From IMG/VR virus record IMGVR_UViG_3300045988_043439, positions 1 to 58,137 of that record: a stretch of 58,137 nucleotides of DNA, one strand, 5' to 3'. Positions 708-56,129 of the stretch are shown piece after piece. A program made the position numbers and the translations under genes. Position 1 is the stretch's first letter, and every line of letters begins with the position of its first letter. Source of the stretch: a virus. The notes beneath the pieces are model-generated. The model searched no databases, was not told where the DNA came from, and saw nothing but the letters and a program-made list of their open reading frames with translations.

Positions 708-1469
708 ATGGCAAACATTCAAGTTTTTGAATATCAGAACAGCAAAGTTCGCACGGTTGATATGGACGGCGAAGCATGGTTCGTTCTGAAAGACGTGTGC
801 GCTGTGCTTGGTATTAGCAATAACCGCATGGCTGCTGACCGATTAGATGATGACGAAAAGGGCGTCAGTCTGATTGACACCCTTGGCGGCAAACAGGAAA
901 TGGTGATTGTCAACGAAAGCGGTTTGTACCACGTCATCCTCCGCAGCGACAAGCCAGAAGCAGCACCATTCCGCAGATGGGTCACAAACGATGTACTTCC
1001 TGCAATCCGTAAGACCGGAAGCTACAACGCACCGCAGCTTACCCGCTCGCAGCTCCTTGCAACTGCACTGATCGCAGCGCATGAGGAACTGGAAGAGAAA
1101 GACAAGCAGATTGCAGAACTTACGCCGAAGGGTGTTTTTGCTGACGCAGTGAGCGCAAGCAGCCAAAGCATTCTTGTTGGTGAAATGGCAAAGCTGCTGT
1201 CACAGAACGGCATCCAGATGGGGCAGAATCGTTTGTTCTCATGGCTGCGTGAGAACGGGTACTTGATTAAAGACAAGAAGCGGACAGACTACAATATGCC
1301 GACCCAGAAGTCTATGGAACTTCGCTTGTTTGAAATCAAGGAAACGTCCATTGCGCATTCCGACGGGCACACTTCTATCAATAAGACCCCGAAGGTGACG
1401 GGTATCGGTCAGGTCTATTTCGTTAATCTCTTCTTAAAGACGGAGAAGAGCAAGAAAGTGGAGGACTGA
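708..1469 (+). CDS. Phage antirepressor (Bro-N domain plus KilAC/ANT-type C-terminal domain)
   Basis: N-terminus FEYQNSKVRTVDMDGEAWFVLKDVCAVLGI...NESGLYHVILRSDKPEAAPFRRWVTNDVLPAIRKTGSY is a Bro-N signature. Confidence 0.8.
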   Translation: MANIQVFEYQNSKVRTVDMDGEAWFVLKDVCAVLGISNNRMAADRLDDDEKGVSLIDTLGGKQEMVIVNESGLYHVILRSDKPEAAPFRRWVTNDVLPAIRKTGSYNAPQLTRSQLLATALIAAHEELEEKDKQIAELTPKGVFADAVSASSQSILVGEMAKLLSQNGIQMGQNRLFSWLRENGYLIKDKKRTDYNMPTQKSMELRLFEIKETSIAHSDGHTSINKTPKVTGIGQVYFVNLFLKTEKSKKVED

Positions 1470-9527: not shown

Positions 9528-10313
9528 TTGGCAACACCCCCGAAGCGTGGTCGTGGCAGACCGCCGCTGACCGAAGCTGAAAAGAAAAAGCGTGAGAAGC
9601 GGGCGCAAAAGGCGAAAGAAGAAGCCGCTGCAAAGCGGGAGAAAGAGCGTGAGAAGAAGAAACAACAGATGCTTAACAAGCGGAAGTCTATCCGCTCACA
9701 GGTGAGTAAAAAGGTGAAAGAACAACAGGAGTTAGCGATCACGAGGTCTAAGATGCTGAACACAGGCGATTTGCAGTCAAGAATCGGCGATGAAGAGGAC
9801 AAGAAAGTCATTGGCATGATTGCAGCCAAGTATTTTGGCGACCTTCCGAGCGTGGACATGAACAACCCGATTGAAGTACAGCAGCGTCTTGACTTCTTCT
9901 TTGACGCTTGCATCGAAGCCAGAATCTCCCCTGTGGTGGAATGGATTGCACTGGTGCTGGGCATCGAATGGGTGAGCTTGAAGCAGATTATGGCTGGCAA
10001 GCGCCGTGACGACAGCTTGCAGCAAAAATACATCCTGAAGCTGATTCTGCAAATGCAGTCCATGTGGGCGTACAACGGTATGTATGGTCAAGAGAACCCG
10101 GCAGAGTGGATTTTCCGAGCCAAGAACTACTTTGGTATGCGTGACAATGTAGAAGTCACCGTTGCGCCGCCTGAACAGCCGTTGGGTGATGCCCAGAGCG
10201 CAGAACAGTTGGCTCAGAAGTACCAGACGGCTTTGCCGAAAGGGATTGACGTGGAGTACAAAGAGGTGGCAAACGATGAAAAAGCTGTACAAGATACTTA
10301 CGTCATGGACTGA
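9528..10313 (+). CDS. terS: Terminase small-subunit-like protein (TTG start)
   Basis: Basic N-terminus. Core VQQRLDFFFDACIEARISPVVEWIALVLGIEWVSLKQ...AEWIFRAKNYFGMRDNVEV resembles Firmicutes-phage TerS. Confidence 0.55.
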   Translation: MATPPKRGRGRPPLTEAEKKKREKRAQKAKEEAAAKREKEREKKKQQMLNKRKSIRSQVSKKVKEQQELAITRSKMLNTGDLQSRIGDEEDKKVIGMIAAKYFGDLPSVDMNNPIEVQQRLDFFFDACIEARISPVVEWIALVLGIEWVSLKQIMAGKRRDDSLQQKYILKLILQMQSMWAYNGMYGQENPAEWIFRAKNYFGMRDNVEVTVAPPEQPLGDAQSAEQLAQKYQTALPKGIDVEYKEVANDEKAVQDTYVMD

Positions 10314-12750: not shown

Positions 12751-13112
12751 GCTACGATATTTATCTATGCGACCATGTAACGCATAAACCGCTCAAAGCG
12801 GATAGTACGCATTTTATCGCTGGTGGTATGCGCGCTATGGGCGGTACAAAAGAACTGTGGCTTAACGTCACCTATAATTACGGTCACTTCTATTATCGAC
12901 CAGAAGTGTTTGGTGAGGGCGGCATCCGCTCGATCTATGGCAAAACAGGCGCAGAGAGCATCCCGATGCTTGAAAAGGCTATTTCTGCACTAGGTGACGA
13001 TGTGGACGATAGCGACTACTGGCACGCCACAGAGGGCAACGCCAAACGTGCCCTGTACGGTCTGTTGACGTTTGCAAAGATGCGTCCTAACGGCGTATGG
13101 GACGGAGATTGA
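12747..13112 (+). CDS. Hypothetical protein
   Basis: 121-aa ORF with an ATGA overlap. Confidence 0.5.
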   Translation: MSYDIYLCDHVTHKPLKADSTHFIAGGMRAMGGTKELWLNVTYNYGHFYYRPEVFGEGGIRSIYGKTGAESIPMLEKAISALGDDVDDSDYWHATEGNAKRALYGLLTFAKMRPNGVWDGD

Positions 13113-13126
13113 AGGGAGAAAGGGTA

Positions 13127-13510
13127 ATGAAGAAAGCAATTTTATCTATGGCACTGGTGGCGTCTATTGCATTGTGCGGATGCACCGAAGCATCTCGTGT
13201 GAATCACAATATTTCACAACAGGCGAAAAATTTCAACATCACACGCCGTCTGTCCGTTGTCAACGCAAGAACAGACACGCCGATGCTTGAAATCATTGGC
13301 AACATGGACATTTCCAATAACAGCAACAATGAACTTGTGGTGACTATTGAATTGCCCGATGGCACATACAAAAAGCATTACGTCTATCTTAACGAGTACA
13401 CAATGTACATTGTGGAGGATTTGAGCGGTTCTGACGTGGACAAGTATCATTACGAAATCAACATTTTGCCGCAGCAGTTACAAAACTTCGTTCTCACCTA
13501 CAATCCGTAA
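13127..13510 (+). CDS. Lipoprotein
   Basis: MKKAILSMALVASIALCGC lipobox; RBS GAAGGGAGAAAGGG. Confidence 0.65.
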   Translation: MKKAILSMALVASIALCGCTEASRVNHNISQQAKNFNITRRLSVVNARTDTPMLEIIGNMDISNNSNNELVVTIELPDGTYKKHYVYLNEYTMYIVEDLSGSDVDKYHYEINILPQQLQNFVLTYNP

Positions 13511-14221: not shown

Positions 14222-14452
14222 ATGGAAGAACTCAAGAGATGCCCATTCTGCGGTGGAAAAGTTACTATTGCCGAAGCAGGAGACTATTTGACAAGCTGGA
14301 TGTCCATAACAAGAGGAAACTGCAAGGATGGATGCAAGTGCCGGGTATTCATGGAAAGCAAGCCATACAACTCTGATTATTCCGAAGCGGATAAAGAAAA
14401 GATTAAGAAAGACCTTATCGAAGCATGGAACAAACGCTACAAAGAGGACTGA
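14222..14452 (+). CDS. Lar-like (restriction-alleviation family) zinc-ribbon protein
   Basis: LKRCPFCGGKVTI...CKC...LIEAWNKR fits the Lar family pattern CPFCG...AWNxR. Confidence 0.5.
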   Translation: MEELKRCPFCGGKVTIAEAGDYLTSWMSITRGNCKDGCKCRVFMESKPYNSDYSEADKEKIKKDLIEAWNKRYKED

Positions 14453-14454
14453 GT

Positions 14455-15093
14455 ATGGACAAAAAACGGGGCAGCTTTACATTTCAGCGATACTACTTTG
14501 AAGCCATCTCCACACTGAAAAGCAAAGAAAAATTGGAGCTCTACGATGCAATCTGTGCATACGTTTTTGAAGAAAAAGACGCGACTTTGAACTCAAAAAA
14601 AGCAGAATCTTGTTTCATTTTGATTAAGCATCTGCTCGATGAAGAATTGAAAAGAAGCGATATTGCGTCAAAAGGATGGTCTACACGAAAGTCAGCTCAT
14701 CCTCATGTCATAAATGAGGTGAAGGTCAGCTCATCTATGAGTTCAAAGTCAGATGACAATGAACCCATTGTATCAGCTGAAGGTCAGATGAGCGTCAAGA
14801 CCTTGCCGGAGAGTGCTGTTAAAAAGAAACCTGACATCTTCTCCGACTTTGCTCATGGCGATAAAGCCCTATTGGAATCCCTGCGAGAGTTCGCGCAGAT
14901 GCGTACAAGAATCAAGAAGCCTATGACAGACCGGGCAAAACAGATGCTCTGCAACAAGCTGGAAAAGTTTGATCGGCATGACTGGAAAGCCATTCTCGAC
15001 CAGAGCATCTATGCTGGATGGCAGGACATTTACGCATTAAAACAGGATGACCAGTACGAGCAAAGTGCGGAGATGGAGTTTCCTAGACTATGA
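14455..15093 (+). CDS. Replication organiser / DnaD-like phage replication protein
   Basis: C-terminus LREFAQMRTRIKKPMTDRAKQMLCNKLEKF...ILDQSIYAGWQDIY is typical of Firmicutes phage replication proteins; overlaps dnaB. Confidence 0.5.
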   Translation: MDKKRGSFTFQRYYFEAISTLKSKEKLELYDAICAYVFEEKDATLNSKKAESCFILIKHLLDEELKRSDIASKGWSTRKSAHPHVINEVKVSSSMSSKSDDNEPIVSAEGQMSVKTLPESAVKKKPDIFSDFAHGDKALLESLREFAQMRTRIKKPMTDRAKQMLCNKLEKFDRHDWKAILDQSIYAGWQDIYALKQDDQYEQSAEMEFPRL

Positions 15094-16295: not shown

Positions 16296-16302
16296 GCACA
16301 TG

Positions 16303-16332
16303 GGCTGTCAGCAATGGCAGTCTTTTGTTTTT
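16303..16332 (+). terminator. Rho-independent terminator after dnaB
   Basis: ggctgtc-agcaat-ggcagtc hairpin followed by ttttgtttttt. Confidence 0.5.
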
Positions 16333-16386
16333 TCAAACTCCACGAGAAAGCCTGTTTTAAGGCGTTTTGGATGCTAGGCGATAACT

Positions 16387-16590
16387 TTATCGACTTAATT
16401 GCAAAAACGCGCCACAGACGCTCGTAGACGGCTCTCCGTTGATGCTGACGATATATCTCAAACCAGACCAAGAAATCAAACCGATGCAAAAGCGGGGAGA
16501 ACGGCTTTTCAGGGTCAGACGTGAAAGTTATCGGGTCAATCGGAAAAACGCGGCAGACAGGCTCTTGTATGCCTTTCCAGCGATGATAGC
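16387..16590. repeat. Two imperfect ~65-nt direct repeats (16387-16453 and 16528-16590)
   Basis: TTATCG-N-AAT(T/C)G(C/G)AAAAACGCG(C/G)CACAGAC... read by eye, about two-thirds identical. Confidence 0.4.
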
Positions 16591-16687
16591 AGCCAGATGA
16601 ACGGATGCCAACGGCTATTCGCCCAATCGCAGGGCTGATTGAAACGAAAAAACGTTTCGACTATCACTTTCGGAAATGGCTTTCAAA

Positions 16688-16808
16688 TTTTTGTCCCCTT
16701 TCCCCCTTGTTTCCTCTTTCCCCCTTTTGTCCCCCTCTTTCCCCTACAACCCCTATTACCCCCTATAATCCCCCTAATATCTTCCGTGCTCCCCCTTTCC
16801 CTCCCTGT
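16688..16808 (+). repeat. About 120-nt polypyrimidine (C/T) tract with reiterated CCCCC(T) units
   Basis: ttgtcccctttcccccttgtttcctctttcccccttttgtccccctctttcccctacaacccctattaccccc... Confidence 0.85.
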
Positions 16809-17011
16809 GTGTTTAGCGCGTCCGCGGGCGTTATATGCGCGAGCACGCGCGTTGACGGAGCCGGGTGTGCCATGATAGTTCAAAAGTGAATAAATAACAG
16901 TTATGCGAAATTGTAAACTGGTTCTTTCCCTATCTCCAAAGTTACACCGTTAGCCAGCAAAGCAGACCGTAGGCGAGAACTGGTGTGAGGCTCGGACTGG
17001 TGGATGGTATG

Positions 17012-17674
17012 CGACTATTTCGGACATGGAGAATTGACTTCATTTTGTAGTCGGTTGAATATGTAGAAATGTTGCATTGCTGTATGAGCAGCTGATTACA
17101 GATTGAAAGCGTCTGGCCAGCCGGAGCGGTTTGCTTTGTTTGTTAAAAATATTGAGGCATTTAGTTTGCGACTATTCCCAGTAGAATGCTATGAATTAAA
17201 TAAAATATCATAGTGCGTTAATAGGAATTGAATTGGATATGAACAGGCCGAATCGGATGATACGACTATTCCAAAGGAATAATAGTTAAAAAGATTGAGT
17301 AATTATCTGCGACTATTATAATAAGTACGATTGTTAAAGATTTTGAGGTAATGCGATTTGGATTAAAATTGAAAGGTGTCAAGACACATATTGATTTTTA
17401 GGGGTGTCGGATGACTTAGCGACTATCGCACCTCTCTTTTCTTAAAAGGCGAACGACTATTTCACACAAAAAATACACGACTATTTGACTGTAGTTCGCA
17501 AGAAAACGCTACGACTATTACTCTGCGACTATCAGCGGACTGCTCACTACTATACGATATATAGGACTTTCAAAAGATAGTCGTCTGACGACTTCACGAC
17601 TATTCCACGACTATTTTATTGGAGAAATTACGACTATTGGTTACGACTATTTCAGCCGGAACGCTACGACTATT
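17012..17674. repeat. Iteron-like array: about 15 copies of (T/G/A)CGACTAT(T/C), mostly direct with one inverted, densest at 17420-17675
   Basis: Copies at 17012, 17169, 17263, 17310, 17420, 17454, 17478, 17512, 17526, 17577(inverted), 17597, 17608, 17631, 17644, 17667. Confidence 0.85.
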
Positions 17675-17749
17675 GCTCGCTCTTATTGGCTATCGGGCGA
17701 AAGCCCGAAAAGAAATACGGCGGTAGCCGTCAAGGGTTTCGCGCCGCCG

Positions 17750-17813
17750 TGCCAGGAAGAAAGCACAATGCCAGGCTAATGCCAGGCTAACCTGGTGCCA
17801 GGCTAATGCCAGG
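17750..17813. repeat. Five TGCCAGG boxes, four as 11-bp-phased TGCCAGGCTAA units
   Basis: Copies at 17750, 17769, 17780, 17796, 17807. Confidence 0.85.
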
Positions 17814-18207
17814 CGTGGGAATCATGGAGACCCCGCCGGGCTTGCATGGTCTGCGATCTGTTGCACCCTCATATACCTTATTATAATAGGGCGGCTGTGC
17901 TGGCCTGCACATCGTCCGGGCGTGGCGCTGGTTCTAGTAAGTTCTGGAGGGCGTCCGGGCGCTGTGATACGCTCCAGCGTGGCGCAGGTGGTATTATAGC
18001 CGCTTTTGTCGGTCTGGTATCGCGGGCGGTGGAATGGGGCATATCACAGGAAAAGCGCTTGTAAAGCCCTGTGCGCTGTTTTGTTGCGTTGGTGGTATAA
18101 CTTCATTGACAGCATAAAACGCGCCGTAAACGGCTTGTATGTGACCTTATTGCAACAGGGTAAAATAAAAGTCCTGCACCCTCAACAGATGCAAGGCAAA
18201 AGAAAAG

Positions 18208-18227
18208 CCCCGCCAGCGTGGGCGGGG
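18208..18227. terminator. Bidirectional terminator hairpin
   Basis: ccccgcc-agcgtg-ggcgggg flanked by an A-run (left) and a T-run (right); ends the leftward operon. Confidence 0.6.
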
Positions 18228-18233
18228 TAGGAA

Positions 18234-18389
18234 TTATTTATTTTTTTCTTCAAGGTCTGCAAGGGCGGTGCAAAGCTCCTGTGCTTCCTCTTCTGTCAAG
18301 TCGTATTCTGCGCGGAGTTGGTCAGCGTCTGCGCTTTTCCATCCTCCATCATACAGGGCGGCGGCACTGCTGGAAACATCTTTTAACAT
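18234..18389 (-). CDS. Small acidic protein (51 aa, hand-called)
   Basis: MLKDVSSSAAALYDGGWKSADADQLRAEYDLTEEEAQELCTALADLEEKNK; RBS AGAGGGA. Confidence 0.45.
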   Translation of the reverse strand: MLKDVSSSAAALYDGGWKSADADQLRAEYDLTEEEAQELCTALADLEEKNK

Positions 18390-18617
18390 GGTTTTCCCTC
18401 TTTTCCGGGCTTTTACCCTTTTTTACAGTATAGCATATCGCAAGCCCTAAAAACAGGACTTGCAAGAAATATTTTTGTCCTTTTGGGCTGGGGCGGGGTT
18501 GCTTTACGGTGCAGCCCCGCTAAAGTGTCCGGGCGGCATTACTTGGATGCCTTGAACAGTGCAGAAAAGAACCAGAAGAAGAACAGGGCACAAGATAATA
18601 TCACTTGTCGCACCCCC

Positions 18618-21054: not shown

Positions 21055-21843
21055 TTATACGCTTCTACGGATGCTTGCATAAAGCAGACGGAACGTCTCA
21101 CGGCCTTTCGGCGTTACTCTGGTCTGTACGCCACCGTGCTTGTTCTTCTGGTTACAGTATTCCTTAACAGCAAACAAGCCGTCGCCCTTGCCCGCTTTCG
21201 GCAAGATGCCCTTGCTCTTGTCACGGTAGATGTATCCGTCAGAAATGAGCATCTTGATAAACAGGCGTTCAGGGATACGCAGTTCCTTTGCGGTCGAGCG
21301 GAAATTTGTAGACACGTTCCATGCCACAAGGTCATCGAAGTAGTCGGCTTTGGGCTGCATCTCTTCGTTCTTCTCACAGAGTTGCTTGTTCTGCATTTGC
21401 AACGCTGCACTCTTTTCCTTTTCGGCTTTCATGTTCTGAATCAGCCCGATCACAAAGTCCGGGTTGGCAATAGCCGTCTCCAACAGGTTGTCGGTCATGT
21501 ACATTCCATGCTTGCGGATGGACGGCAAAACCTCGTGAGTGACCCAGTGTTTGAACCGCTGTGCGCTTTCCAGCTTGCTGCTGAAAATCAGACTGTACAG
21601 GCCGGATTCGTTGATGATGGTTGTCTTGCTCTTGTAATTAGAACCATCACCCTGAATCAGGGTAGTGGTTTTATCTTGCTCATCAACGTGTGCTGACAGT
21701 GCGTTCTCAGGCTTTGCGTAGCCAAGTGCTACCGCAATGTCCTTTCCAACAAACCAAGGGTCATCGTCAATGAGCATGACACGGATTTCGCCAAACTCGG
21801 CGTTGTTGAAGATTTTGATGTTCTCAGACAAAGAAAGTTGCAT
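21055..21843 (-). CDS. Second antirepressor (Bro-N plus ANT/KilAC-type C-terminal domain)
   Basis: FGEIRVMLIDDDPWFVGKDIAVALGY...NESGLYSLIFSSKLESAQRFKHWVTHEVLPSIRKHGMY. Confidence 0.8.
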   Translation of the reverse strand: MQLSLSENIKIFNNAEFGEIRVMLIDDDPWFVGKDIAVALGYAKPENALSAHVDEQDKTTTLIQGDGSNYKSKTTIINESGLYSLIFSSKLESAQRFKHWVTHEVLPSIRKHGMYMTDNLLETAIANPDFVIGLIQNMKAEKEKSAALQMQNKQLCEKNEEMQPKADYFDDLVAWNVSTNFRSTAKELRIPERLFIKMLISDGYIYRDKSKGILPKAGKGDGLFAVKEYCNQKNKHGGVQTRVTPKGRETFRLLYASIRRSV

Positions 21844-21861
21844 TAAAAAGCCCCTTTTCAC

Positions 21862-21976
21862 TTGTGAGAGAAGCAATTTTCTGCTATAATAACGGCGAGA
21901 GAATGCTTCTCTCAGGGTTTACATGATACGCTCGCTAAAGTTTGCCGACAGCAGCGAGCGTATCATTTTTCGTTTT
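21862..21976 (+). ncRNA. Candidate ~80-nt antisense sRNA with its own promoter (sar-like) in the RHH-ant intercistronic region
   Basis: TTGTGA (21862)-17 nt-TATAAT (21885); hairpin gagagaa-tgc-ttctctc; perfect 14-bp stem atgatacgctcgct/agcgagcgtatcat plus ttttcgtttt. Confidence 0.3.
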
Positions 21977-22944: not shown

Positions 22945-23709
22945 ATGAAAAACGTAGCTGCTTATATCCGAGTTTCTACCGAAGGGCAATGCGGAGAGGA
23001 CAAATTTGGACTTGAAGCACAAAGGGAACAGATAGAAGAATATTGCAAAAAAAATGACATGAAAATTGTCAAATGGTACACTGATGAAGGTGAATCTGGG
23101 GCAAAGCGTAGGCCGGGCTTTGATAGCATCCTTTACGGAAAAGATGATGTTGAATACGAAGCTGTTGTAGCCGCTAAAAGCGATAGAATTGCTAGAGACA
23201 TCAATGTGTATTTTTGGTACAGGATGGAACTTCTTACTAAAAAGAACGTTTCGCTTATCAGCGTGGCCGAAGATTTTGGAGAATTTGGAGTGTTTTCTGA
23301 TATGTTGAGAACCTTTACAATATGTTGCGCTCAAATGGAAAGAGACAATATAACAAAAAGAACATCTAGCGGAAGAGCAATTAAGGCATCTAATGGCGGT
23401 TATAGCGGTGGAAAAGCACCTATGGGATATAAAGTAAAGGATGGGGCACTCATTATTAACGAAGAGGAAGCAAAAATTGTAAAAAGAGCGTTTGAACTTC
23501 GAGATTCTGGTGAAACGATTCGTTCTGTTGTGAACAAGTTAAACGAAGAGGGTTATCGAGGGAGAAAAGGAAACCCATTTACCATTAGCACCGTTCAATC
23601 TATTCTTAGCAACAGGAAAACGTATGAGGGATATTATCGGTACGGAAAGGATGGCGAGTGGGTTAAAGGTAAGCAGGAACCAATTTTGGAAGAAAAAAAG
23701 GAAGGTTAA
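22945..23709 (+). CDS. Serine recombinase (resolvase catalytic domain plus recombinase domain; only 254 aa)
   Basis: AAYIRVSTEGQ (catalytic Ser), DRIARD, MERDNITKRTSSGR, GGKAPMGYK. Confidence 0.8.
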   Translation: MKNVAAYIRVSTEGQCGEDKFGLEAQREQIEEYCKKNDMKIVKWYTDEGESGAKRRPGFDSILYGKDDVEYEAVVAAKSDRIARDINVYFWYRMELLTKKNVSLISVAEDFGEFGVFSDMLRTFTICCAQMERDNITKRTSSGRAIKASNGGYSGGKAPMGYKVKDGALIINEEEAKIVKRAFELRDSGETIRSVVNKLNEEGYRGRKGNPFTISTVQSILSNRKTYEGYYRYGKDGEWVKGKQEPILEEKKEG

Positions 23710-23710
23710 A

Positions 23711-24295
23711 ATGGAGCGTACTTTTGGCGATATTCAAAATGCAGCGAAAGAATGCGAAAAGAACAACTATGTATATGTTTGGTTTTTCTCTAAAGATGAT
23801 CGCTTTGTCCCCTTTTACGTTGGGATTGGAAGCGATAAAAACAGATGGAAAAACAAAACTTCAAGGAGTAAGACATTTAGAGATTTTGTAAAAAGAAATA
23901 AATGCGTTTCCATGAAAGTCCTAGAGAATCTTGTTTATGAAGTCGCAAGAGAAGTGGAAATAAGAACAAAGAAGAAGTTAGTCGAAAATGGATATTTCAT
24001 TATGGATGCCGAAGATGATTTTGATATGCGCCGCTTGCGTCAGGCAGAGGGCATAGCCGCCATGCCTATTGTTGATGGCAAGAGAGTGTCGGCGAGAACA
24101 GGTCGTAGCTTCGGCAGGCAGGAAAAGCAAGTTGACGAGCAGCAGTTTGAAAGCCTATTAGAGCAACAGCAAAAAGGCAAAATTACCGTAAAAGAGTGCT
24201 GCAAGCAGCTTGGCATCGGGAAATCCACTTGGTATGAGCGTGTCGAAAGATACGCAAATAAAAATAGCGGCAGCCCAACCACAAGCCACCGCTAA
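23711..24295 (+). CDS. GIY-YIG-like nuclease domain protein with a C-terminal resolvase-type HTH
   Basis: YVYVWFFSKDDRFVPFYVGIGS..R..N (GIY-YIG-like); C-terminal ITVKECCKQLGIGKSTWYERV. Confidence 0.45.
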   Translation: MERTFGDIQNAAKECEKNNYVYVWFFSKDDRFVPFYVGIGSDKNRWKNKTSRSKTFRDFVKRNKCVSMKVLENLVYEVAREVEIRTKKKLVENGYFIMDAEDDFDMRRLRQAEGIAAMPIVDGKRVSARTGRSFGRQEKQVDEQQFESLLEQQQKGKITVKECCKQLGIGKSTWYERVERYANKNSGSPTTSHR

Positions 24296-25089: not shown

Positions 25090-25222
25090 ACCGTGCAACC
25101 CATTTATTAAGATGGATTTTAGTAAATAATTTTTCCGAAACAGCATTATAAAACCGAATATTTGATTTTTGTGCAGTTGTAGGCACTCTTTACATTTTCA
25201 GGTAGGGGGTGCCTATTTTTTT

Positions 25223-27898
25223 ATGCAGCCAAAGCAGTGTATCGCCATCATTGACAGTATCAAAGCGTATGCGAAGCAGAATCCGACCGAAGCACAGGTC
25301 TATGAGGACTGGTTTCAGGCGGTGGTGAACCTGAGAGATGCCCTGCCGCAAGACAAGCGGTTTGATGCCTACAAATACTCTGGAGAGCTGCGCTCTGTCT
25401 GCGCAGCCATGATGGGCAAGATGAAAACAGGCGAGGACGTGGCGAAGGTTTATGACATTATCGGCCGGACGTACCTGTTTGAAGCAAAGGATGTGTTCGA
25501 CAGCTATTGCATCTACCTTGAATGGAACCGTGCGCCGGAAAAGAAGTTCTATCAGCCGAGACGCAGGGTTTTGAAAGTGCTGGCAGATGACCTTGAGGAC
25601 TTGTTTTATAAGCGGATTGACTTCTTGGGAGTTAGTTTGCCCGCTCGCGTCGGCAAGCTTTTGAGTGATGATACGCCAATTCTTACACGAAATGGCTGGA
25701 AGAATCACGGCGATTTACAAGTCGGTGATGAAGTTATCAGCCCAAAAGGTCAGTTTGTGAAGGTGCTGGCAGTATCTCCGAAGAATTATGCAAATATCCG
25801 CTGCCATTTCTCTGACGGCACATACATTGACTGCCATGAAAACCACGAGTGGCCTGTTTACAGCAAACATTCCAATGGGTTCAAAGTGCTTGAAACAAAG
25901 CAAATGATGAATGACTTTGAATCGGGGAAACCGGGACATCGCGGTCATAGATATTTCTATTATTCTCCTGTTTGCAATTTTGTTGAGGGAGAATATAAAA
26001 AGCTACCCGTTGAGCCATACACACTGGGCGCATGGCTTGGCGATGGAACAAATCAAAAGCCCTTGATTTGCGAATCAAAACAGGACAGATGTATTATCGA
26101 AAGAATTGTCAACGACGGATATGCCATCGGGAATTATTACGTCCATAAGACAACAGGGGTAGAATATTTTCATTTTGATGGGCTTCGTGCCGACCTAAAA
26201 AAGATTGATATGTGCTATCGCTCTACTCGTTGTGTGAAGCATATCCCTGAAGAATACTTTACCGCTAGCATTGCACAGCGCATGGAACTGTTGGCTGGTT
26301 TGCTTGATACAGATGGAATGCTAAAAAAAGGCGAAAATAGATATTCTTTTTCTACAACAGAACCGCAGCTCCGCGATGATTTCACTACGCTTGTTTCAAC
26401 ATTCGGTTGGCGTTGCTCTGTAACCAGTTATGCCCCTCGCGTTTCTTCTAGTGGTGTTCATGGGAGAAAAACTGTTTATCGGATTGATTTTAATCCAACT
26501 TGCCCTATCCCTTGCGTTGTTCCTCGTAAACAAATGAAATCGTTCTCCAAACCTCGCCGTGTGGCGTTTTGCGGGTTTGAACGCATCGAGCCGAAGCAGG
26601 GCAACTGCATTCAGGTTGAGGGTGGCGTGTACTGCGCTGGTAAGCGGCTGATTCCCACCCATAACAGTACCTTGTGCATCTTTTTCATCACATGGCTAAT
26701 GGGCAACCGCCCTGACGTTGCATCGGTTATGAGCGGACACTCTGACAAGCTGACCAATGGTTTCTACGGCGAAGTGCTGTCCATCATTACTGACCCTGTG
26801 ACCTACAACTGGGGCAAAATTTTTCCTGACGTTCAGCTTGTGGATAAAAGCGCAAAGGACGAAAGCGTTGACCTGAACCGAAAGAAGCGCTTCCCCACCC
26901 TGACTTGCCGCTCAATCGGCGGTACGCTGACTGGTGCTGTTGAAATCGGCGAGGGCGGCGTTTTGTACAGCGATGACTTGATCGAGGACTTGGAGGAAAG
27001 TCTGAACGTTGAGCGTTTGAACAACAAGTACGATGCCTACCTGAACCAGCTAAAAGACCGCAAAAAGCAAGGCGCATTGGAACTGATGGTCGGTACGCGC
27101 TGGAACGTTCTTGACCCTCTTGGACGCATCCAGAACCAATATGCAGACAATCCGAAGTACCGCTTTCGAGTGATTCCTGCGGTGGACGAGAACGGGCACA
27201 GCAACTTCAATTATGACTATGGCGTTGGGTTTGACGATGCCTACTATGCCGATATGAAAGCCAGCATTGATGATGCAACATGGTGGGCAAAGTACATGGG
27301 CAAGCCCTATGTGCGTGAAGGTCTGCTATTCCCTGCTGATGAACTGCGGTATTTCAACGGTGTTCTGCCTGATGGGGAGCCAGATCGCAAGCTTATGGTC
27401 ATGGATATTGCATGGGGCGGCGGTGACTTCACCGCCTGTCCTATCGCTTATGTGTACGGGGATGCTGTGTTCATCCCTGATCTCGTGTTCAATAACGGCG
27501 ATAAGACCGTAACCAGACCGGAAGTCGTGGGCAAAATCATCCAGCACAAAATTAACGTGGTGCGTGGCGAAGCCAACAACGGCGGCGATGAATATTGTGA
27601 CGTGGTGGACAGCCAGCTCCGGCAGCAGGGCTATCACTGCTCTGTCCGCAGCCAGCGTGCGCCCAGTGGCCAGAGCAAGCTGTCAAGAATCATTCAGTAT
27701 GCGCCAGATATCAAACGGTTCTATTTCCTTGACGAAAAACACCAGTCAAAAGAGTACAAGGCGTTCATGGAACAGGTCACGATGTTCACGCAGCTTGGCA
27801 AAGTTCCGCACGATGATGCACCGGATAGTCTGGCTCAGCTTGCCGATGAATTGTATAACGGAATCAGTAAAATTGAGCCTGTCAAGAGGCCTTTTTGA
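25223..27898 (+). CDS. terL: Terminase large subunit, interrupted by an intein (extein about 555 aa)
   Basis: Walker A LPARVGK//ST is restored when 25658-26665 is removed; the C-terminal nuclease-type region is acidic. The start is uncertain because the RBS is poor. Confidence 0.85.
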   Translation: MQPKQCIAIIDSIKAYAKQNPTEAQVYEDWFQAVVNLRDALPQDKRFDAYKYSGELRSVCAAMMGKMKTGEDVAKVYDIIGRTYLFEAKDVFDSYCIYLEWNRAPEKKFYQPRRRVLKVLADDLEDLFYKRIDFLGVSLPARVGKLLSDDTPILTRNGWKNHGDLQVGDEVISPKGQFVKVLAVSPKNYANIRCHFSDGTYIDCHENHEWPVYSKHSNGFKVLETKQMMNDFESGKPGHRGHRYFYYSPVCNFVEGEYKKLPVEPYTLGAWLGDGTNQKPLICESKQDRCIIERIVNDGYAIGNYYVHKTTGVEYFHFDGLRADLKKIDMCYRSTRCVKHIPEEYFTASIAQRMELLAGLLDTDGMLKKGENRYSFSTTEPQLRDDFTTLVSTFGWRCSVTSYAPRVSSSGVHGRKTVYRIDFNPTCPIPCVVPRKQMKSFSKPRRVAFCGFERIEPKQGNCIQVEGGVYCAGKRLIPTHNSTLCIFFITWLMGNRPDVASVMSGHSDKLTNGFYGEVLSIITDPVTYNWGKIFPDVQLVDKSAKDESVDLNRKKRFPTLTCRSIGGTLTGAVEIGEGGVLYSDDLIEDLEESLNVERLNNKYDAYLNQLKDRKKQGALELMVGTRWNVLDPLGRIQNQYADNPKYRFRVIPAVDENGHSNFNYDYGVGFDDAYYADMKASIDDATWWAKYMGKPYVREGLLFPADELRYFNGVLPDGEPDRKLMVMDIAWGGGDFTACPIAYVYGDAVFIPDLVFNNGDKTVTRPEVVGKIIQHKINVVRGEANNGGDEYCDVVDSQLRQQGYHCSVRSQRAPSGQSKLSRIIQYAPDIKRFYFLDEKHQSKEYKAFMEQVTMFTQLGKVPHDDAPDSLAQLADELYNGISKIEPVKRPF
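25658..26665 (+). mobile_element. Intein (336 aa) with an embedded LAGLIDADG homing endonuclease; class-3-like WCT signature
   Basis: Begins LLSDDTPIL (no Cys/Ser1) and ends IPTHN/S. Block B HENHEW, block F GNCIQVEG. LAGLIDADG motifs LGAWLGDG and LAGLLDTDG. Confidence 0.8.
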
Positions 27899-28320: not shown

Positions 28321-28398
28321 GTTGCATTAGCTCAGTTAGGCTAGAGCATCCGGCTCATAACCGGACATACATTGGTTCAAATCCATTATGCAGCACCA
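28321..28398 (+). tRNA. tRNA with anticodon CAT (Met, fMet or Ile2), CCA encoded
   Basis: Hand-folded: gttgcat/atgcagc acceptor, gctc/gagc D-stem, tccgg-ctCATaa-ccgga, attgg-ttcaaat-ccatt, then A-CCA. Confidence 0.8.
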
Positions 28399-28753: not shown

Positions 28754-28845
28754 ATAGTTTTTGAAGCGCAGTTGTAAGCGCAGTGAGATAGACCTTAACA
28801 GGTTTGTCTTGCTGCGCTTTTTATTTTGCCGGAAAGGAGGAACGC

Positions 28846-30360
28846 ATGGCTGAGTATCAGATAGTTGTTGACGGCTTCTTGAATGAGCCGCTAACCGGAC
28901 GCAGGCCGATTGAAACGCCGGAGACGGAAATCAATCGGGTGAATGTTCTGAAAGTGGTTATGGGCAAGGCAGAGCCTATTCATCTGCTGAACAAGAACGA
29001 GATTCGTTTTCTGCATAACTACTACTTGGGTAGCCAGCCTGTCCTCCATCGCACGAAGGAGTACCACGCTGAAATCACCAACCGTATTGTAGAGAACCAT
29101 GCCAACGAGTGCGTTGGCTTCTACACCGGCTACATGAGCGGCACTCCTTGCTCTTATGTGCGGTCTGAAACTGCAACAGGTGACGGCGAGGAAATTGCCC
29201 GTCTGTCCAATGCTTTGCAGTATGAGGGCAAGGATGCGCTTGATCGGCGGCTCTGGCAGTGGATGTTGGAGTGCGGACAGGGATACCGCATTGTTCTTCC
29301 TGACAAGGGGTACAACGGCAACTACCCGGATGAAACGCCTCTGCTGGTGGACGTTCCCGACCCAGACATGGCGTATGTGATTTACAATTCCGGCATCGGG
29401 CATAAGCCTATTGCCAACGTGCTGCATATCCCACGCAATTATCAGAACGACTTAAACGACCTGATTTGCGTGTACACGCCGAACCAGTACTTTGAAATCG
29501 ACAACGGCAAGGTTACAAAGTCTGAGAATCACTCTCTCGGAATGTTGCCGATGGTCGAATACAAGCTGAACCCGGAGCGTATGGGTCTGTTTGAACCGGC
29601 TATCCCTGTGCTGGATGCCATCAACGACCTTGAAAGCAACCGTTTAGACGGTGTGGCGCAGTTCATCCAGTCCATCATGGTGTTTACCAACTGCCTTGTG
29701 GATGATAACGCACTGAAACAGGTCAAAGAGCTTGGCGCAATGTGTCTGAAATCTACAACCAGCTTGCCTGCCTCCGTTTCGCAGATTGCAAATGAGCTTG
29801 ACCAGCAGCAGAGCCAGACCTTGCTTGATTCCATGTTGAACGTGTACCGCAGTCTGACTGCCATGCCTAGTGCTACTGGCAGCGAAAACGCAACGTCCGA
29901 CAATGTTGGCGCGGTCATCGTCCGCAACGGTTGGAATCACACCGAAGCAAGAGCGCAGCAGTATGAGAATATGTTCAAGTACGCTGAACGCCATAGCTTG
30001 TCTGTGATGCTCAAAATTCTGCGTGACACGGCTGGTTCTAAGCTGATGGCAAGTGACATCAACATCAAACTGCCACGCCGTCAGTACGACAACCAGCAGA
30101 GTAAGGTTCAGATTTTTGCACAGATGATTCAGCAGCCGATTGACCCGCAGTTGGCGTTCACCACGCCCGGTCTGTTCCCTGACCCGCAGGCTGCTTATGA
30201 AATGAGCAAGCCATTCTTGATTGCTGCTGGCAAGCTGGGCGAGGACGGGAAAGCGCCGAAGCCGCAGGAACAGCCCAAACGGGATGTTACCGGCACAAAT
30301 GTCGGGAACATAGCAGATGAACAGTCTGCCGATACCAATAAAGAAACAGAGGGCCAATAA
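28846..30360 (+). CDS. Portal protein (SPP1 gp6-like)
   Basis: About 500 aa, first large gene after terL and followed by scaffold and capsid genes; acidic C-terminus; RBS GGAAAGGAGG. Confidence 0.75.
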   Translation: MAEYQIVVDGFLNEPLTGRRPIETPETEINRVNVLKVVMGKAEPIHLLNKNEIRFLHNYYLGSQPVLHRTKEYHAEITNRIVENHANECVGFYTGYMSGTPCSYVRSETATGDGEEIARLSNALQYEGKDALDRRLWQWMLECGQGYRIVLPDKGYNGNYPDETPLLVDVPDPDMAYVIYNSGIGHKPIANVLHIPRNYQNDLNDLICVYTPNQYFEIDNGKVTKSENHSLGMLPMVEYKLNPERMGLFEPAIPVLDAINDLESNRLDGVAQFIQSIMVFTNCLVDDNALKQVKELGAMCLKSTTSLPASVSQIANELDQQQSQTLLDSMLNVYRSLTAMPSATGSENATSDNVGAVIVRNGWNHTEARAQQYENMFKYAERHSLSVMLKILRDTAGSKLMASDINIKLPRRQYDNQQSKVQIFAQMIQQPIDPQLAFTTPGLFPDPQAAYEMSKPFLIAAGKLGEDGKAPKPQEQPKRDVTGTNVGNIADEQSADTNKETEGQ

Positions 30361-47884: not shown

Positions 47885-48108
47885 TGTGGTATAATATTTA
47901 CAGACAATTCGCTTAATGAATTGCTGGTGTGGTCTGGCCTAAAGATTTCTGTCAGCACAAGCGCACAGCTTACGAAATTTAGTCTCCTGCCCGCCTACTC
48001 GCAGTGCGTACCATGTGGGAGACGCAGAAAAAAATAATCCCCTGCTTTGCCGAAGCCCTGCGTGCCACGCGGGTACTTTGTAGGCAAAGCGGGGGATTTT
48101 TTGTTTTA
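47885..48108 (+). ncRNA. Candidate ~200-nt RNA: extended -10 promoter to a strong terminator, with no ORF
   Basis: TGTGGTATAAT (47885-47895); internal stem gtctcc/ggagac; terminator atcccctgctttgcc...ggcaaagcgggggat plus T6. Confidence 0.35.
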
Positions 48109-48245: not shown

Positions 48246-48290
48246 TAATCAAGCTCTAATCAAGCTTTAAGCAAGCTTTAAGCAAGGTTC
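48246..48290. repeat. Four tandem ~11-nt repeats (T/A)AA(T/G)CAAGCT(C/T)T
   Basis: taatcaagctc taatcaagcttt aagcaagcttt aagcaaggttc, upstream of the gene at 48379. Confidence 0.7.
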
Positions 48291-52755: not shown

Positions 52756-53328
52756 TCAATCCTCCAAGAAATCCTCCAATTCAATCTTTCCTTCTGCCGC
52801 CGCAACTGCCAAAGCGTACACGAACTGTCCAATCGTCATTCCGTGCCGTCTAGCTTCACGGTTGATGTACTTGCGTTCTTCCTCGCTCATAAGGATGGTA
52901 ATGCGCTTGGAACGCTTGCCATCACCGCTTGCAACACCCTGATGCGATTCCGGCATCGGGATTTTTTTCTTTGTCAAGCCAGCTTCGGCTAGCGCGCCGG
53001 GAACATCGCCTTGTTCGATAAGGCGCTGAACTTCTTTCGCCTGTTTCAGCTTCTTCGGCTTACTTTCGCTTACTACGGCATTGTTCGGCTGTGTTCCGCT
53101 GTCTTTGGCTTGCTTCGGCTTAATACTGCTTAACTGTGCTTCATTAGGCTGTGTAGGGCTGTCTGTGACTTCACTGTGCTTAATCTGTGCTTGTTCGGCT
53201 TCGTTCGGCTTTGCTTGGCTTACTTCTTCTTCCTTTGGCTCACTTCGGCTTAATGTCTGTTCCGAAAAAATAGGCTGAAAATCAAACCCGCCAAGCAGAC
53301 CTGAGGATTTTTTGCTGGTTGATTTCAT
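52756..53328 (-). CDS. Ribbon-helix-helix partition partner (ParG/CopG-like) with a repetitive low-complexity N-terminus
   Basis: C-terminus KRITILMSEEERKYINREARRHGMTIGQFVYALAVAAA fits RHH; ATGA-coupled to parA. Confidence 0.6.
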   Translation of the reverse strand: MKSTSKKSSGLLGGFDFQPIFSEQTLSRSEPKEEEVSQAKPNEAEQAQIKHSEVTDSPTQPNEAQLSSIKPKQAKDSGTQPNNAVVSESKPKKLKQAKEVQRLIEQGDVPGALAEAGLTKKKIPMPESHQGVASGDGKRSKRITILMSEEERKYINREARRHGMTIGQFVYALAVAAAEGKIELEDFLED

Positions 53329-54095
53329 CAGCCTTCACCTCCGACAATATGTTGCGCCAACGCCTTGAAATCCTCTGCGCTGGTGCTCTTTGCCGTGTCA
53401 CCGCTAAACAAGCTGTGCCGTTCTGCCTGAGCCTTACGGACGCCCATAGACGGTCTAATCTTCACGTCCAGCAGGGTTGTGCCCATGCTCTGCGCAATCA
53501 CAGGAAGCTGCTCCACAACCTCTTTGGACAGGTTCTCACGGCTCTTGTACTGGTTCAGAAGCAATCCTTCAATCTTCAAAGTCGGATTGAAATATCTGCG
53601 AACATCGCCGATGGTCTGCGAAAGCTGGCTCAAACCAGCCAGTGCGTATCGGTCTGCTGTGATGGGGACGATAATGCTGTTGGCGGCGATCAGTGCGTTC
53701 ACAAGCGCAAGGCCAAGCTGCGGGGGAGTGTCCAGCACAATGTAATCGTACTGACCAGACACGCTTTCAAGGGCTTCTCGCAGCCGGAAGTTTTTGCCCA
53801 TGTCCCTGACAAGCTGCTCGTCAATGTCCTTCAATGCGTTGTCGGACGGCAGAATGTCACCAGCTTCACAGTGCTGGATTCCTTCTTCGACCGTTCCCTG
53901 CCGGGTCATCACGTCAAACAGGGTGCATACGTCCTCTGTCTGTGCCCCGTAGGTGTCCGTTGCGTTGCACTGGGCATCGCAGTCCACCAGCAGGACTTTC
54001 TTGCCAAGCAACTGCAACGCACCAGCCAGACAGGTGCTTGTTGTGGTCTTTCCTGTGCCACCCTTTTGGTTGGCGACCGCTATGATTTTTGCCAT
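53328..54095 (-). CDS. parA: ParA/Soj-family partition ATPase
   Basis: MAKIIAVANQKGGTGKTTTS deviant Walker A; VLLVDCDAQCN; YDYIVLDTPP. Confidence 0.9.
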   Translation of the reverse strand: MAKIIAVANQKGGTGKTTTSTCLAGALQLLGKKVLLVDCDAQCNATDTYGAQTEDVCTLFDVMTRQGTVEEGIQHCEAGDILPSDNALKDIDEQLVRDMGKNFRLREALESVSGQYDYIVLDTPPQLGLALVNALIAANSIIVPITADRYALAGLSQLSQTIGDVRRYFNPTLKIEGLLLNQYKSRENLSKEVVEQLPVIAQSMGTTLLDVKIRPSMGVRKAQAERHSLFSGDTAKSTSAEDFKALAQHIVGGEG

Positions 54096-54112
54096 TTTAT
54101 CACTCTTTCTTT

Positions 54113-54394
54113 TTAGTAAAACGGATATGCTGCTTTTATCTCGTCTCCGACCCACAACACAGGCGTGACGTGCCATGCAATTACGGTTCCTTTGATCTCA
54201 TTGCTATCGGAATCAAACCATTTGCCGTTGATTGTATCGTACTCTCCGATTATGAAACTTTTTTCTCCTGTTTTCTTATCTTCGATACAAAGTAAAAGCC
54301 CATGTGGCCATCTTTCTAGGCTTTTATCCGGCATAACATCTTTAGTCATGTACCACTTGTCCTTGTCATAGCCTTTCGGAAACATCGGAATCAT
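54113..54394 (-). CDS. Hypothetical protein
   Basis: Start set at MIPMFPKG behind AAGGAG. Confidence 0.4.
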   Translation of the reverse strand: MIPMFPKGYDKDKWYMTKDVMPDKSLERWPHGLLLCIEDKKTGEKSFIIGEYDTINGKWFDSDSNEIKGTVIAWHVTPVLWVGDEIKAAYPFY

Positions 54395-54430: not shown

Positions 54431-55528
54431 CTACTTTTGCAGTGCGTCAATCTCATAAAATGCCGGAAGATACTCTTCAATCGCGCCGTCTTTCTTCAAG
54501 CTACCAATCAGATACCGCTTCGGATGGTCAGGCCAGGGGTCACGGTTGATTGAAAGAATATCCGCACACGCAGCCTTTACGATGTCATAGACCGCATCTC
54601 TCCGCTTCGGCAGCTTGATAGATGGGTGTTCTTCCATCATCTTTACCTCGACAACCTTTGCAACCTCGATGCACTCTTGAACGGATAGAGCATCGCACAC
54701 AGACCAGTCGTACCCTTCGTATCCGCTTGTGCGGGGCTTTCTGGCGGCTTTTTTGATTTCCGGCTTGGAGGAATTAGCCGCCTCACAATCAACTTCGCTA
54801 GAATCGGCGTCTATGACGGGCTGCTTGGATTTGTACCCGAATCGAAACTCAACTGCTACTACCTTTCGCCCTGTGCAAATCTTTTCAAAGTCAACGACAA
54901 TGTCTGAAACATTGCTGATCTCTTCCACCGCTGGTTCAAGAACTCTGCGGCGTAAAGCCCGGAAATCGTCATAACTTGCATCGTTTGCCCCCAAGTGGTC
55001 ACGCAGCTGCTTCAAACCAATCTTGTTCGATGTTAGAGAGCGATTCATCCAATCTCGAATCATGCTGTACATCAGAATAGATGCTTGCTGTTTCATCCCA
55101 ATCGTATAGCGCAGACGGTATTTGACGTAGCCGCTTCTTGCAATGTCGAAAAACACAGGCCGCAAGTCAGGATTACAGTTGATTGAAACGTCATAGGACA
55201 AGGATTCTCGATTGTACTTGACCTCTGCCTTTGTGAACAGCGGATACATCACATATTCTGTTCCATCTGCATTCAGTGGTACTGAAACCACGTTGCCCAA
55301 AAAGTGCTTAACCTGCGACTTCAAGTTCTTTGAATTGAGCTTCAAATCCAGCAGTTTGCAATATTCAGCCAGCGTAAACGACACGTTAGAGCTTTCGGGA
55401 TCTCTCGGATTGATACGGCTCAGATAGACCTCAAGCAGCCGAAGCTCGCCTGCTGTGTAGTCCGTAAACTTCGCCCAAACCAATGCCTTGCTCTTTTCGA
55501 CAAGGTTGTTTCCTGTCAATTCTGGCAT
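54431..55528 (-). CDS. Plasmid replication initiator (RepB/Rep_3-like)
   Basis: N-terminus NLVEKSKALVWAKFTDYTAGELRLLEVYLSRINPRDP... is typical of iteron-type initiators; the iteron array lies immediately upstream. Confidence 0.7.
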   Translation of the reverse strand: MPELTGNNLVEKSKALVWAKFTDYTAGELRLLEVYLSRINPRDPESSNVSFTLAEYCKLLDLKLNSKNLKSQVKHFLGNVVSVPLNADGTEYVMYPLFTKAEVKYNRESLSYDVSINCNPDLRPVFFDIARSGYVKYRLRYTIGMKQQASILMYSMIRDWMNRSLTSNKIGLKQLRDHLGANDASYDDFRALRRRVLEPAVEEISNVSDIVVDFEKICTGRKVVAVEFRFGYKSKQPVIDADSSEVDCEAANSSKPEIKKAARKPRTSGYEGYDWSVCDALSVQECIEVAKVVEVKMMEEHPSIKLPKRRDAVYDIVKAACADILSINRDPWPDHPKRYLIGSLKKDGAIEEYLPAFYEIDALQK

Positions 55529-55561: not shown

Positions 55562-55790
55562 ACTGTATCGTGTACACGTCAACGATTCTGTACACAATTA
55601 TTTTTTCAACAATCGACTTCCACATTTTGTACACAATACTCCATTTTTTGTACACGATACTCTCCACTTCTTGTACACGTTATTCCACTTTATGTACACA
55701 ATGCTCCACTTTTTGTACACGTTCTTACTATATATATAAACAAGAGATAAACAAGAGATAAATAATCATCATCAAATAGTGACGACGATA
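55562..55790. repeat. Plasmid-type origin: 7 TGTACAC-core iterons (5 in 21-23-bp tandem phase) plus an AT-rich stretch with 2x AAACAAGAGATA
   Basis: TGTACAC at 55571, 55589, 55628, 55649, 55672, 55693, 55714; consensus CCAC(T)TTNTGTACAC(R)(W)T. Confidence 0.8.
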
Positions 55791-55894
55791 CATTTTCAAC
55801 AATTTCTTTTCTTCAACGGACAGATTGTTGAAAACGACAACTCTTTTTGCTGAATAAGAAACGTCCATCAAGCCCTATAACCTATCTGACGGTT

Positions 55895-56085
55895 CTATCG
55901 TGTACAGAAAATGGGGTGCAATCACACTAATAGGGAACGAATTGACAAGTCACGCTTTGATGAACGAAAATTTCACGCGAGTTCGTTAATTACATCTGCA
56001 AAAATCCACCATTTACGATTCTATGGGGGACAAAATGACAACCCAAAACCATATTTATAACAGGCCTATTGTGTACAAAAAGTGG
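55895..56085. repeat. Two inverted copies of the Rep iteron
   Basis: ctatcgtgtacagaaaatgg (55895-55914) and ctattgtgtacaaaaagtgg (56066-56085) are reverse complements of the iteron consensus. Confidence 0.55.
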
Positions 56086-56129
56086 AGCGCGTCCCCCTGT
56101 ATACCGTAAAAACTTCGATAACTCGACAA

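Follow-up and report, generated by a model that had tools for sequence, protein, structure and literature searches.

What is the purpose of the gene-free region that lies between dnaB and a converging leftward operon in the genome of an uncultured gut phage? We analyzed this region, positions 16296-18233 of IMG/VR virus record IMGVR_UViG_3300045988_043439; the whole stretch of 58,137 nt is called the window below. An earlier note on this DNA had offered three uses for the repeats found there: a second, lytic replication origin, the centromere for ParA and its ribbon-helix-helix (RHH) partner, or a packaging site, with no means of choosing among them from the letters alone. Packaging is the only one of the three with positive support, which comes from the co-occurrence and shared orientation of an array of short repeats with terS, the gene for the small terminase subunit (TerS). 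The data disfavor the second lytic origin and lend the centromere no support. We lean towards reading the functional core, at about 17.0-17.7 kb, as a multi-box pac site, a TerS recognition sequence at which headful packaging would start.

The core is built from copies of CGACTATY. The window has 17 copies of this motif where 1.82 are expected, and none of 100 shuffled sequences reaches that number. Fifteen copies lie in the region, at 16658-17674, which agrees with the earlier count of about 15 CGACTAT(T/C) copies. Fourteen are on the plus strand and one, at 17576, is inverted; a purine precedes the motif in 14 of the 15. The ten core boxes follow a lattice of 11.8 bp (R = 0.93), and 0 of 2000 random placements fitted as well. 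A period of 10.5 bp fits poorly (R = 0.18). In two other lineages with CGACTAT arrays, the lattice fit is 11.25 bp. From box to box the steps are 34/24/34/14, then 71, then 11/23/13/23; this pattern recurs in 57 relatives, with boxes gained or lost solely at the right end.

We assembled the family of relatives by a pattern scan and BLAST, which yielded over 100 IMG/VR contigs, about 55-60 kb long; most come from a single human-gut data set. Two faecal contigs in GenBank also belong to the family. In a collection of cultured phages, the only DNA matches were three unannotated faecal contigs, and neither TerS query found a cultured relative; a plasmid collection held no DNA match to the region. 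Three blocks (16930-17079, 17170-17748 and 17862-18215) are common to nearly all family contigs. Column conservation peaks at 16930-17079 (0.88-0.94) and 17410-17740 (0.84-0.96), falls at 17170-17400 and collapses at 17750-17830. The best-conserved block of the region is the core array. Initiator alleles of two unrelated kinds occur in the family, and each is accompanied by a DnaB allele of its own (95% vs 66% nucleotide identity to the window). For the core array, identity is 0.889 within the groups defined by initiator allele and 0.889 between them, and TerS is 96-100% identical across 80 family contigs; a search for related loci with a narrow alignment yielded this family alone. The array therefore tracks TerS, since TerS and array are conserved while the replication alleles swap.

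The link between array and terS extends beyond the family. Viral contigs without DNA similarity to the window also contain CGACTAT arrays, spaced at the same irregular intervals of 11-34 bp, and in seven DNA-unrelated loci (L011, L027, L083, L094, L103, L104 and L116) a TerS homolog directly adjoins the array. We also ran the test in reverse, collecting loci by TerS homology alone and then searching them for array motifs. In many lineages, arrays on the same strand begin -50 to +300 nt from the terS stop codon. The motifs found after terS are CGACTAT, CGACTTT, (T)GTAACTT(T), CGTGTAGTTC and CAGAAAA, and close TerS relatives may carry either CGACTAT or CGACTTT. In 558 kb, the terS strand had 464 copies of CGACT[AT]T and the opposite strand 62. 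The 400 nt after terS are the most repeat-rich window of the locus in 6 of 26 TerS clusters. Sister lineages with a site adjoining terS comprise the seven loci above together with L321-337, L342-356, L401 and L415. Across lineages, array and TerS co-occur and co-vary.

Three further loci were noted during these scans. A bacterial genome contig (L202) encodes a TerS homolog at 950-1869 on the minus strand (E = 2e-66), with CGACTAT boxes at and past its 3' end, and is probably a prophage of a sister lineage. Among the 120 matches listed in the pattern scan of bacterial contigs, all except L202 were without a TerS homolog or similarity to the window. The 9.8-kb contig L030 carries a gene for the large terminase (TerL) and about 36 CGACTAT boxes on both strands, and the 278-kb contig L065 carries convergent arrays with 16 boxes on the plus strand and 9 on the minus strand. 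Neither L030 nor L065 has a detectable TerS homolog in the stretch examined.

The predicted reader of the boxes is the product of the open reading frame (ORF) at 9528-10313. A phmmer search with this protein returned 777 remote homologs, and 54 of the 61 that were scanned matched PF16677 (GP3_package), a Pfam family named after the DNA-packaging protein gp3. The Pfam gathering cut-off was passed by homologs P0037 and P0038 (38-39% identity) and by the array-adjacent homologs in L027, L083 and L104. Three TerS homologs match phrog_606, terminase small subunit. A broader TerS profile matches the helix-turn-helix (HTH) of PDB entry 2ao9 with E = 0.007; a PDB sequence search with the family TerS profile returned nothing. 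Near TerL in the window, there is no alternative TerS candidate. Through its homologs, the ORF is assigned to GP3_package as a divergent TerS of the P22-gp3 type, and the genome thus encodes both terS and terL.

We compared the array with pac sites of well-studied phages. In P1, the pac repeats form two clusters that flank the cleavage region. There are seven of these hexanucleotide repeats (PMC11260489). The array described here resembles P1 pac in being a complex signal made of several copies of a short oligonucleotide, with five plus five boxes arranged around a conserved spacer. It differs in its motif, which is the 8-9-bp RCGACTATY in 10-15 copies on an 11.8-bp lattice, in its position outside the terminase gene, and in its TerS, which is of the P22 gp3 family and not PacA. 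RCGACTATY does not contain GATC, and therefore no Dam control is expected, unlike in P1. The pac site of SPP1 has three sets of direct repeats (boxes A, B and C) and spans promoters, and the HTHs of the small terminase are displayed on a ring (PMC4737164). The SPP1/SF6 site (pacL-pacC-pacR, read by G1P) shares direct repeats, promoter-like sites within the region and, presumably, an HTH-ring TerS with the present array. Unlike SPP1, which has two copies of each box type and a pac that overlaps the terS start, the region has a single motif in 10-15 copies far from terS. The pac site of P22 lies inside terS (PMC11260489). The small terminases belong to the same family by homology, and sites in sister lineages lie at or overlap the terS 3' end, close to the arrangement of pac within terS. 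The window instead has a phased multi-copy array 6.7 kb from terS, unlike the single P22 site. The feature is most likely a complex multi-repeat pac site, notable for how many boxes it has, for the lattice and the distance from terS, and because it recurs with variant motifs across lineages of uncultured gut phages.

The lattice, the ring-displayed HTHs and the repeat-built pac sites of SPP1 and P1 together lead us to infer that the boxes would dock successive TerS subunits. Each HTH of an oligomeric TerS ring would contact one box, with the DNA wrapped round the ring, and the step of about 11.8 bp per box would correspond to the spacing of subunits, not to the helical repeat. The AT-hook at the TerS N-terminus may engage the adjacent AT-rich stretch. 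TerL would cleave nearby, perhaps in the conserved spacer at 17534-17596 with its dyad at 17579-17593, and packaging would proceed rightward, in the direction of terS and terL. A more specific proposal, which we hold only tentatively and regard as rather doubtful, is a wrap-around pac. In this proposal each RCGACTATY on the approximately 11.8-bp lattice would dock one HTH of a gp3-type TerS ring, and the variants CGACTAT, CGACTTT, GTAACTT and CGTGTAGTTC would form a specificity code. The site would be split from terS and paired with a conserved, G/U-rich non-coding transcript.

Several results weigh against a packaging site. ORF 9528-10313 is itself below the Pfam and PHROG thresholds and has no direct match there, and its AlphaFold model has a predicted local distance difference test (pLDDT) score of 57, too poor for a fold search. 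The DNA-binding domains of SF6 TerS show little preference for pac repeats in vitro (PMC4737164). Pac sites do not usually have such a layout: the early rightward operon contains terS, with terL 15 kb away, and the array of the window begins 6.7 kb downstream of terS, with no array within 4 kb on either side of terS in 80 family contigs. P22 gp3, the best-studied TerS of its Pfam family, reads one asymmetric site of about 17-22 nt and no array. Arrays are confined to some TerS lineages (a strict count gives 6 of 26 clusters). In many sister lineages, terS and the array come right after a primase or helicase gene, a neighborhood that an origin would share. Contig ends were also considered. Measured from terS, 4 of 80 fall at +7.8 to +8.15 kb, the place expected from the array, and a far larger cluster falls at 31-35 kb. 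We did not use them as evidence of physical ends because of that larger cluster, and because contigs of half-genome length suggest assembly breaks at variable DNA.

We asked how well a lytic origin would account for the same array. The CGACTATT boxes would then be iterons for the DnaD-like initiator, or for a TerS-like HTH protein acting as initiator; 17130-17400 would unwind, and internal promoters would supply activating or priming transcription. Known origins of this kind include the ori that follows pri-rep in Staphylococcus aureus pathogenicity islands (SaPI), the lambda ori inside O, and the ori/crr octamers of P4. The region is like them in having two sets of short repeats, with AT-rich DNA (17130-17400, GC 23-38%) beside the direct repeats at 17012-17674, downstream of a helicase gene. 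The array follows dnaB immediately, and in sister lineages it follows primase/helicase genes. It is insulated by terminators and contains promoter-like sites, and transcription from the TATAAT at 17882 would give a G-rich RNA, favorable to R-loops. Against this, the array is unlikely to be the origin of the initiator, because it is the same in kind and sequence with either of the unrelated initiator/DnaB alleles. Unlike the repeats of iteron origins, the array repeats do not vary with the initiator, and each initiator allele instead has its own repeat cluster in the linker of its gene, an arrangement like that of lambda O. In the window, this cluster consists of ARGTCAGMT, which occurs six times against 1.64 expected, four of them at 14689-14789. 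Relatives with the window allele have clusters of up to three (1-3 copies at each of 19 loci); with the other allele there is 0-1 copy of this motif, and ATGCAAAYG-type repeats are found inside its own gene, so that each motif is essentially limited to its own allele. The region contains no DnaA boxes. In several lineages the array begins at the terS stop codon and not at the helicase gene, and some terS-array units follow genes for RtcB, a methyltransferase or a PAPS-reductase, which are not replication genes. We regard an origin in the array as unlikely, and the allele-specific repeats inside the initiator gene are the more likely candidate for the lytic origin.

Two other explanations were weighed against the packaging site. 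One is that the array is a partition centromere for ParA and the RHH partner, distant from the par genes as in the phage-plasmid N15. Type Ib centromeres are arrays of short direct repeats, and this phage-plasmid does carry ParA (53328-54176) and an RHH/NikA-like partner (52756-53328). However, CGACTAT is absent from the vicinity of the rep-parA-parB operon (52.7-55.6 kb), its sole copy outside the region being at 15440 within dnaB, and no ParA or RHH homologs were found in the 3-14 kb examined around 14 loci with arrays in other lineages. A more conventional candidate, which could be the real centromere, is a set of degenerate repeats of about 10 bp at 53045-53211, in or next to the RHH gene. 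We consider a centromere in the array very improbable. The other explanation acts at the level of RNA: rightward transcription from 17322, 17887 or both would make the CGACUAUU repeats and 17893-18165 part of a non-coding RNA, which might act as a protein sponge or as a regulator. It would account for the placement of 14 of the 15 boxes on one strand, although strand-specific direct repeats are equally expected of DNA-binding sites. Promoter-like sites lie on the plus strand, but their -35 elements are unconserved. The segment at 17893-18165 is conserved though non-coding, and its two sequence types behave differently in RNAalifold column-shuffle tests. Type 2 gave z = -4.3 on the plus strand vs 0.05 on the minus strand, while type 1 showed no strand preference (-1.9 plus, -2.2 minus). 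Numerous substitutions preserve G-C or G-U pairs, but pairs changed on both sides number 5 of 65 in type 2 and 10 of 33 in type 1, each in few sequences. The family-wide RNAalifold consensus is weak (-14 kcal/mol, covariation term -2.5), single-sequence folding of four segments gave z of -0.1 to -1.55, and mutual information over 17893-18165 is swamped by two linked haplotypes. Rfam 15 found nothing in 16296-18233 at the gathering score, nor at E < 0.9 in a permissive scan. An RNA-level element is improbable in our view, though less so than a centromere.

The features of the region and the genes tied to it are collected in Table 1. On the left, the region is bounded by the terminator of the rightward dnaB operon; on the right, it is bounded by the tandem terminators of the leftward ant operon, whose first gene encodes an antirepressor. 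The second conserved GC hairpin (17717-17730) reads as a minus-strand terminator that would shield the array from leftward transcription, and the core array is insulated by terminators at either side.

Table 1. Coordinates of the array, its surroundings and the genes discussed with it (positions in the window; conservation is column conservation among relatives)
Feature	Position	Strand	Remarks
terS, putative divergent P22-gp3-type small terminase	9528..10313	+	261 amino acids (aa); AT-hook-like N-terminus PKRGRGRPP; presumed reader of CGACTATT boxes
Four ARGTCAGMT repeats, spacing 34/23/35	14689..14789	+	In linker of DUF6291/O-like initiator gene 14425-15093
Variable accessory slot, non-coding in the window	16296..16929	.	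Holds 37-nt direct repeats and polypyrimidine tract
Intrinsic terminator of rightward dnaB operon	16302..16323	+	9-pair stem, then TTTGTTTTTT
Conserved non-coding block with outlying box 17012	16930..17079	+	Conservation 0.88-0.94, 58 sequences; no ORF; minimum free energy (MFE) z -1.4
Insertion adding one ATTGAG...TGCGACTATT unit (box 17169)	17080..17170	+	In about 1/3 of relatives; gap fraction 0.62-0.65
AT-rich stretch with boxes 17169/17263/17310	17130..17400	+	GC 23-38%; conservation 0.65-0.88, below flanks
Promoter-like TTGAGT-16-TATAAT	17295-17322	+	Within AT-rich stretch
Core array group A, five RCGACTATY boxes	17420..17533	+	Boxes 17420/17454/17478/17512/17526; conservation 0.88-0.96
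Conserved spacer between box groups	17534..17596	.	71 bp box-to-box; holds TATACGATATATAGG and dyad AGTCGTC-T-GACGACT 17579-17593
Core array group B, five boxes	17597..17674	+	Boxes 17597/17608/17631/17644/17667; 4-7 boxes in relatives, steps of 11-23 bp
Two conserved GC hairpins	17693..17730	.	GGGC-GAAA-GCCC 17693-17708, ACGGC-GGTA-GCCGT 17717-17730; conservation 0.91-0.96
Modular GC-rich hypervariable block	17750..17860	.	5 x TGCCAGG(CTAA) in the window; 84-283 nt in relatives
Nearly invariant element CCCTCATATACCTTATTATAATAGGG	17866..17891	+	TATAAT 17882-17887; -35 unconserved
Conserved non-coding G+T-rich segment	17893..18165	+	Two sequence types in relatives; single-sequence MFE z -1.55
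Tandem intrinsic terminators closing leftward ant operon (21876 to 18234)	18227-18208 and 18195-18173	-	Conservation 0.93
Large terminase TerL	25169..27898	+	909 aa; presumed TerS partner; 7.5 kb downstream of array, same strand

Other claims of the earlier note were checked against the relatives. It had found no credible ORF in 16296-18233, and this stands: the longest, of 94 aa (16605-16889), is not kept as a frame. We rejected it as a gene, as relatives lose the start, indels shift the frame and the stop moves. In 63 of 67 sequences, the minus strand has the longest frame without a stop over 17850-18240, and which frame this is differs among relatives. A minus-strand gene there was also rejected, since codon periodicity is absent (variability 0.153/0.173/0.153 at the three positions); the open frames arise because the plus strand is G+T-rich, an effect of composition. 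The direct repeats described as about 65 nt long are real but measure 37 nt (76% identity, 16387-16423 vs 16528-16564), with an alignment score of 29 vs a shuffle maximum of 24. The polypyrimidine tract is present at 16690-16812 (123 nt, 85% C+T, and at least 90% over 16694-16764), while the supposed CG-alternating block is merely a trivial GCGCG doublet. Five TGCCAGG boxes do lie at 17750-17813, clustered with an 11-bp period, and the motif is not enriched across the window (6 found vs 9.2 expected). The GAAA hairpin at 17693-17708 exists and is nearly invariant among relatives. For the promoter-like TTGCAC...TATAAT, the stretch from about -24 to +4 that includes TATAAT is nearly invariant, but the spacer is 15 nt and the -35 TTGCAC at 17861-17866 is unconserved. 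The terminator called bidirectional works out as a minus-strand terminator with a conserved T-run, at 18227-18208, and is the second member of a tandem pair; on the plus strand its U-tract is distal and unconserved.

The left and right parts of the region differ among relatives. In 21 of them, the slot at 16296-16929 holds a 239-aa HTH_36/RepA_N-like gene (for example L001, 3181-4977), and in five loci there is an additional 305-aa ORF with a CxxxCxxC-like motif. The insertion at 17080-17170 belongs to repeat family D3. About 10 relatives have TGCCAGG modules in the hypervariable block where others have GCTGACCC-type modules, and we saw no co-variation of these modules with the initiator allele. 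To its right, 17866-18165 forms a separate conserved non-coding unit. The element at 17866-17891 is possibly a promoter that relies on its -10 alone, and the unit may give rise to a G/U-rich transcript of about 300 nt over 17893-18165. The window has just two copies of the palindrome TATTATAATA, at 17314 and 17879, vs 0.03 expected.

The rest of the window identifies it as the genome of a phage-plasmid. Its plasmid genes encode a Rep3-family initiator (54431-55528, minus strand), ParA, the RHH/NikA-like partner (minus strand) and a CI-like repressor. The separate Rep/iteron origin and ParA described in the earlier note are real: five Rep3 iterons of 21-22 bp lie at 55619-55720, and this set at 55.6 kb is the plasmid-state origin. 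Within the origin (55590-56090), the iterons read GTGTACAAAAAGTGGAG, more GTGTACA copies lie over the rep promoter, AT-rich 11-bp repeats are found at 55736-55762, and one inverted iteron copy is located near the CI-like repressor gene. Degenerate repeats of about 10 bp that resemble AAGCCGAA code for the N-terminal, low-complexity half of the RHH/NikA-like ParB candidate. The phage genes include an intein-bearing TerL, an SPP1-type portal (28804-30360) and the DUF6291/O-like initiator (14425-15093) with DnaB. Distant relatives of the portal and Rep proteins point to a Clostridia-type gut bacterium as the host.

Several additional elements were recorded in the window. The TerL intein is of the LAGLIDADG/Hom_end type and lies at about residues 359-439, between the ATPase and nuclease parts, and a tRNA-Met gene (28321-28398, plus strand) is located between terL and the portal gene. 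An ORF for a serine recombinase (254 aa) overlaps one of 223 aa with a resolvase-type HTH_7, and there is also an ORF resembling a recombination directionality factor (22945-24295 and 13097-13510, both plus strand). A recombinase directly upstream of terL is also present in the unrelated loci L011 and L116. Two genes encode Bro-N/KilAC antirepressors, at 708-1469 (plus strand) and 21055-21876 (minus strand), one of which heads the leftward operon that converges on the region. Inside that operon, a RAGATH-5 RNA match at 18482-18532 on the minus strand exceeds the gathering score with 61 bits; a WXG100-like ORF of 51 aa (18234-18389, minus strand) lies immediately downstream of it. A DUF3800-VIII RNA match at 48036-48098 (plus strand, 72.8 bits) adjoins an 11-bp tandem repeat at 48246-48286.

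How ring-shaped small terminases select the genome remains unsettled; the DNA-binding domains of the best-studied one are almost indifferent to sequence (PMC4737164). A gp3-type TerS tied to 10-15 identical phased boxes whose sequence varies by lineage offers a testable model of recognition. If the wrap-around proposal is true, it would describe a sequence-specific, multi-site TerS-DNA system that is absent from the classic SPP1/SF6 and P22 models. There is also a lesson for annotation, in that a short-repeat array that follows replication genes in an uncultured phage is easily mislabelled as an origin. This phage family is abundant in the human gut, and the pac site of a common gut phage-plasmid bears on the prediction of lateral and generalized transduction in the microbiome.

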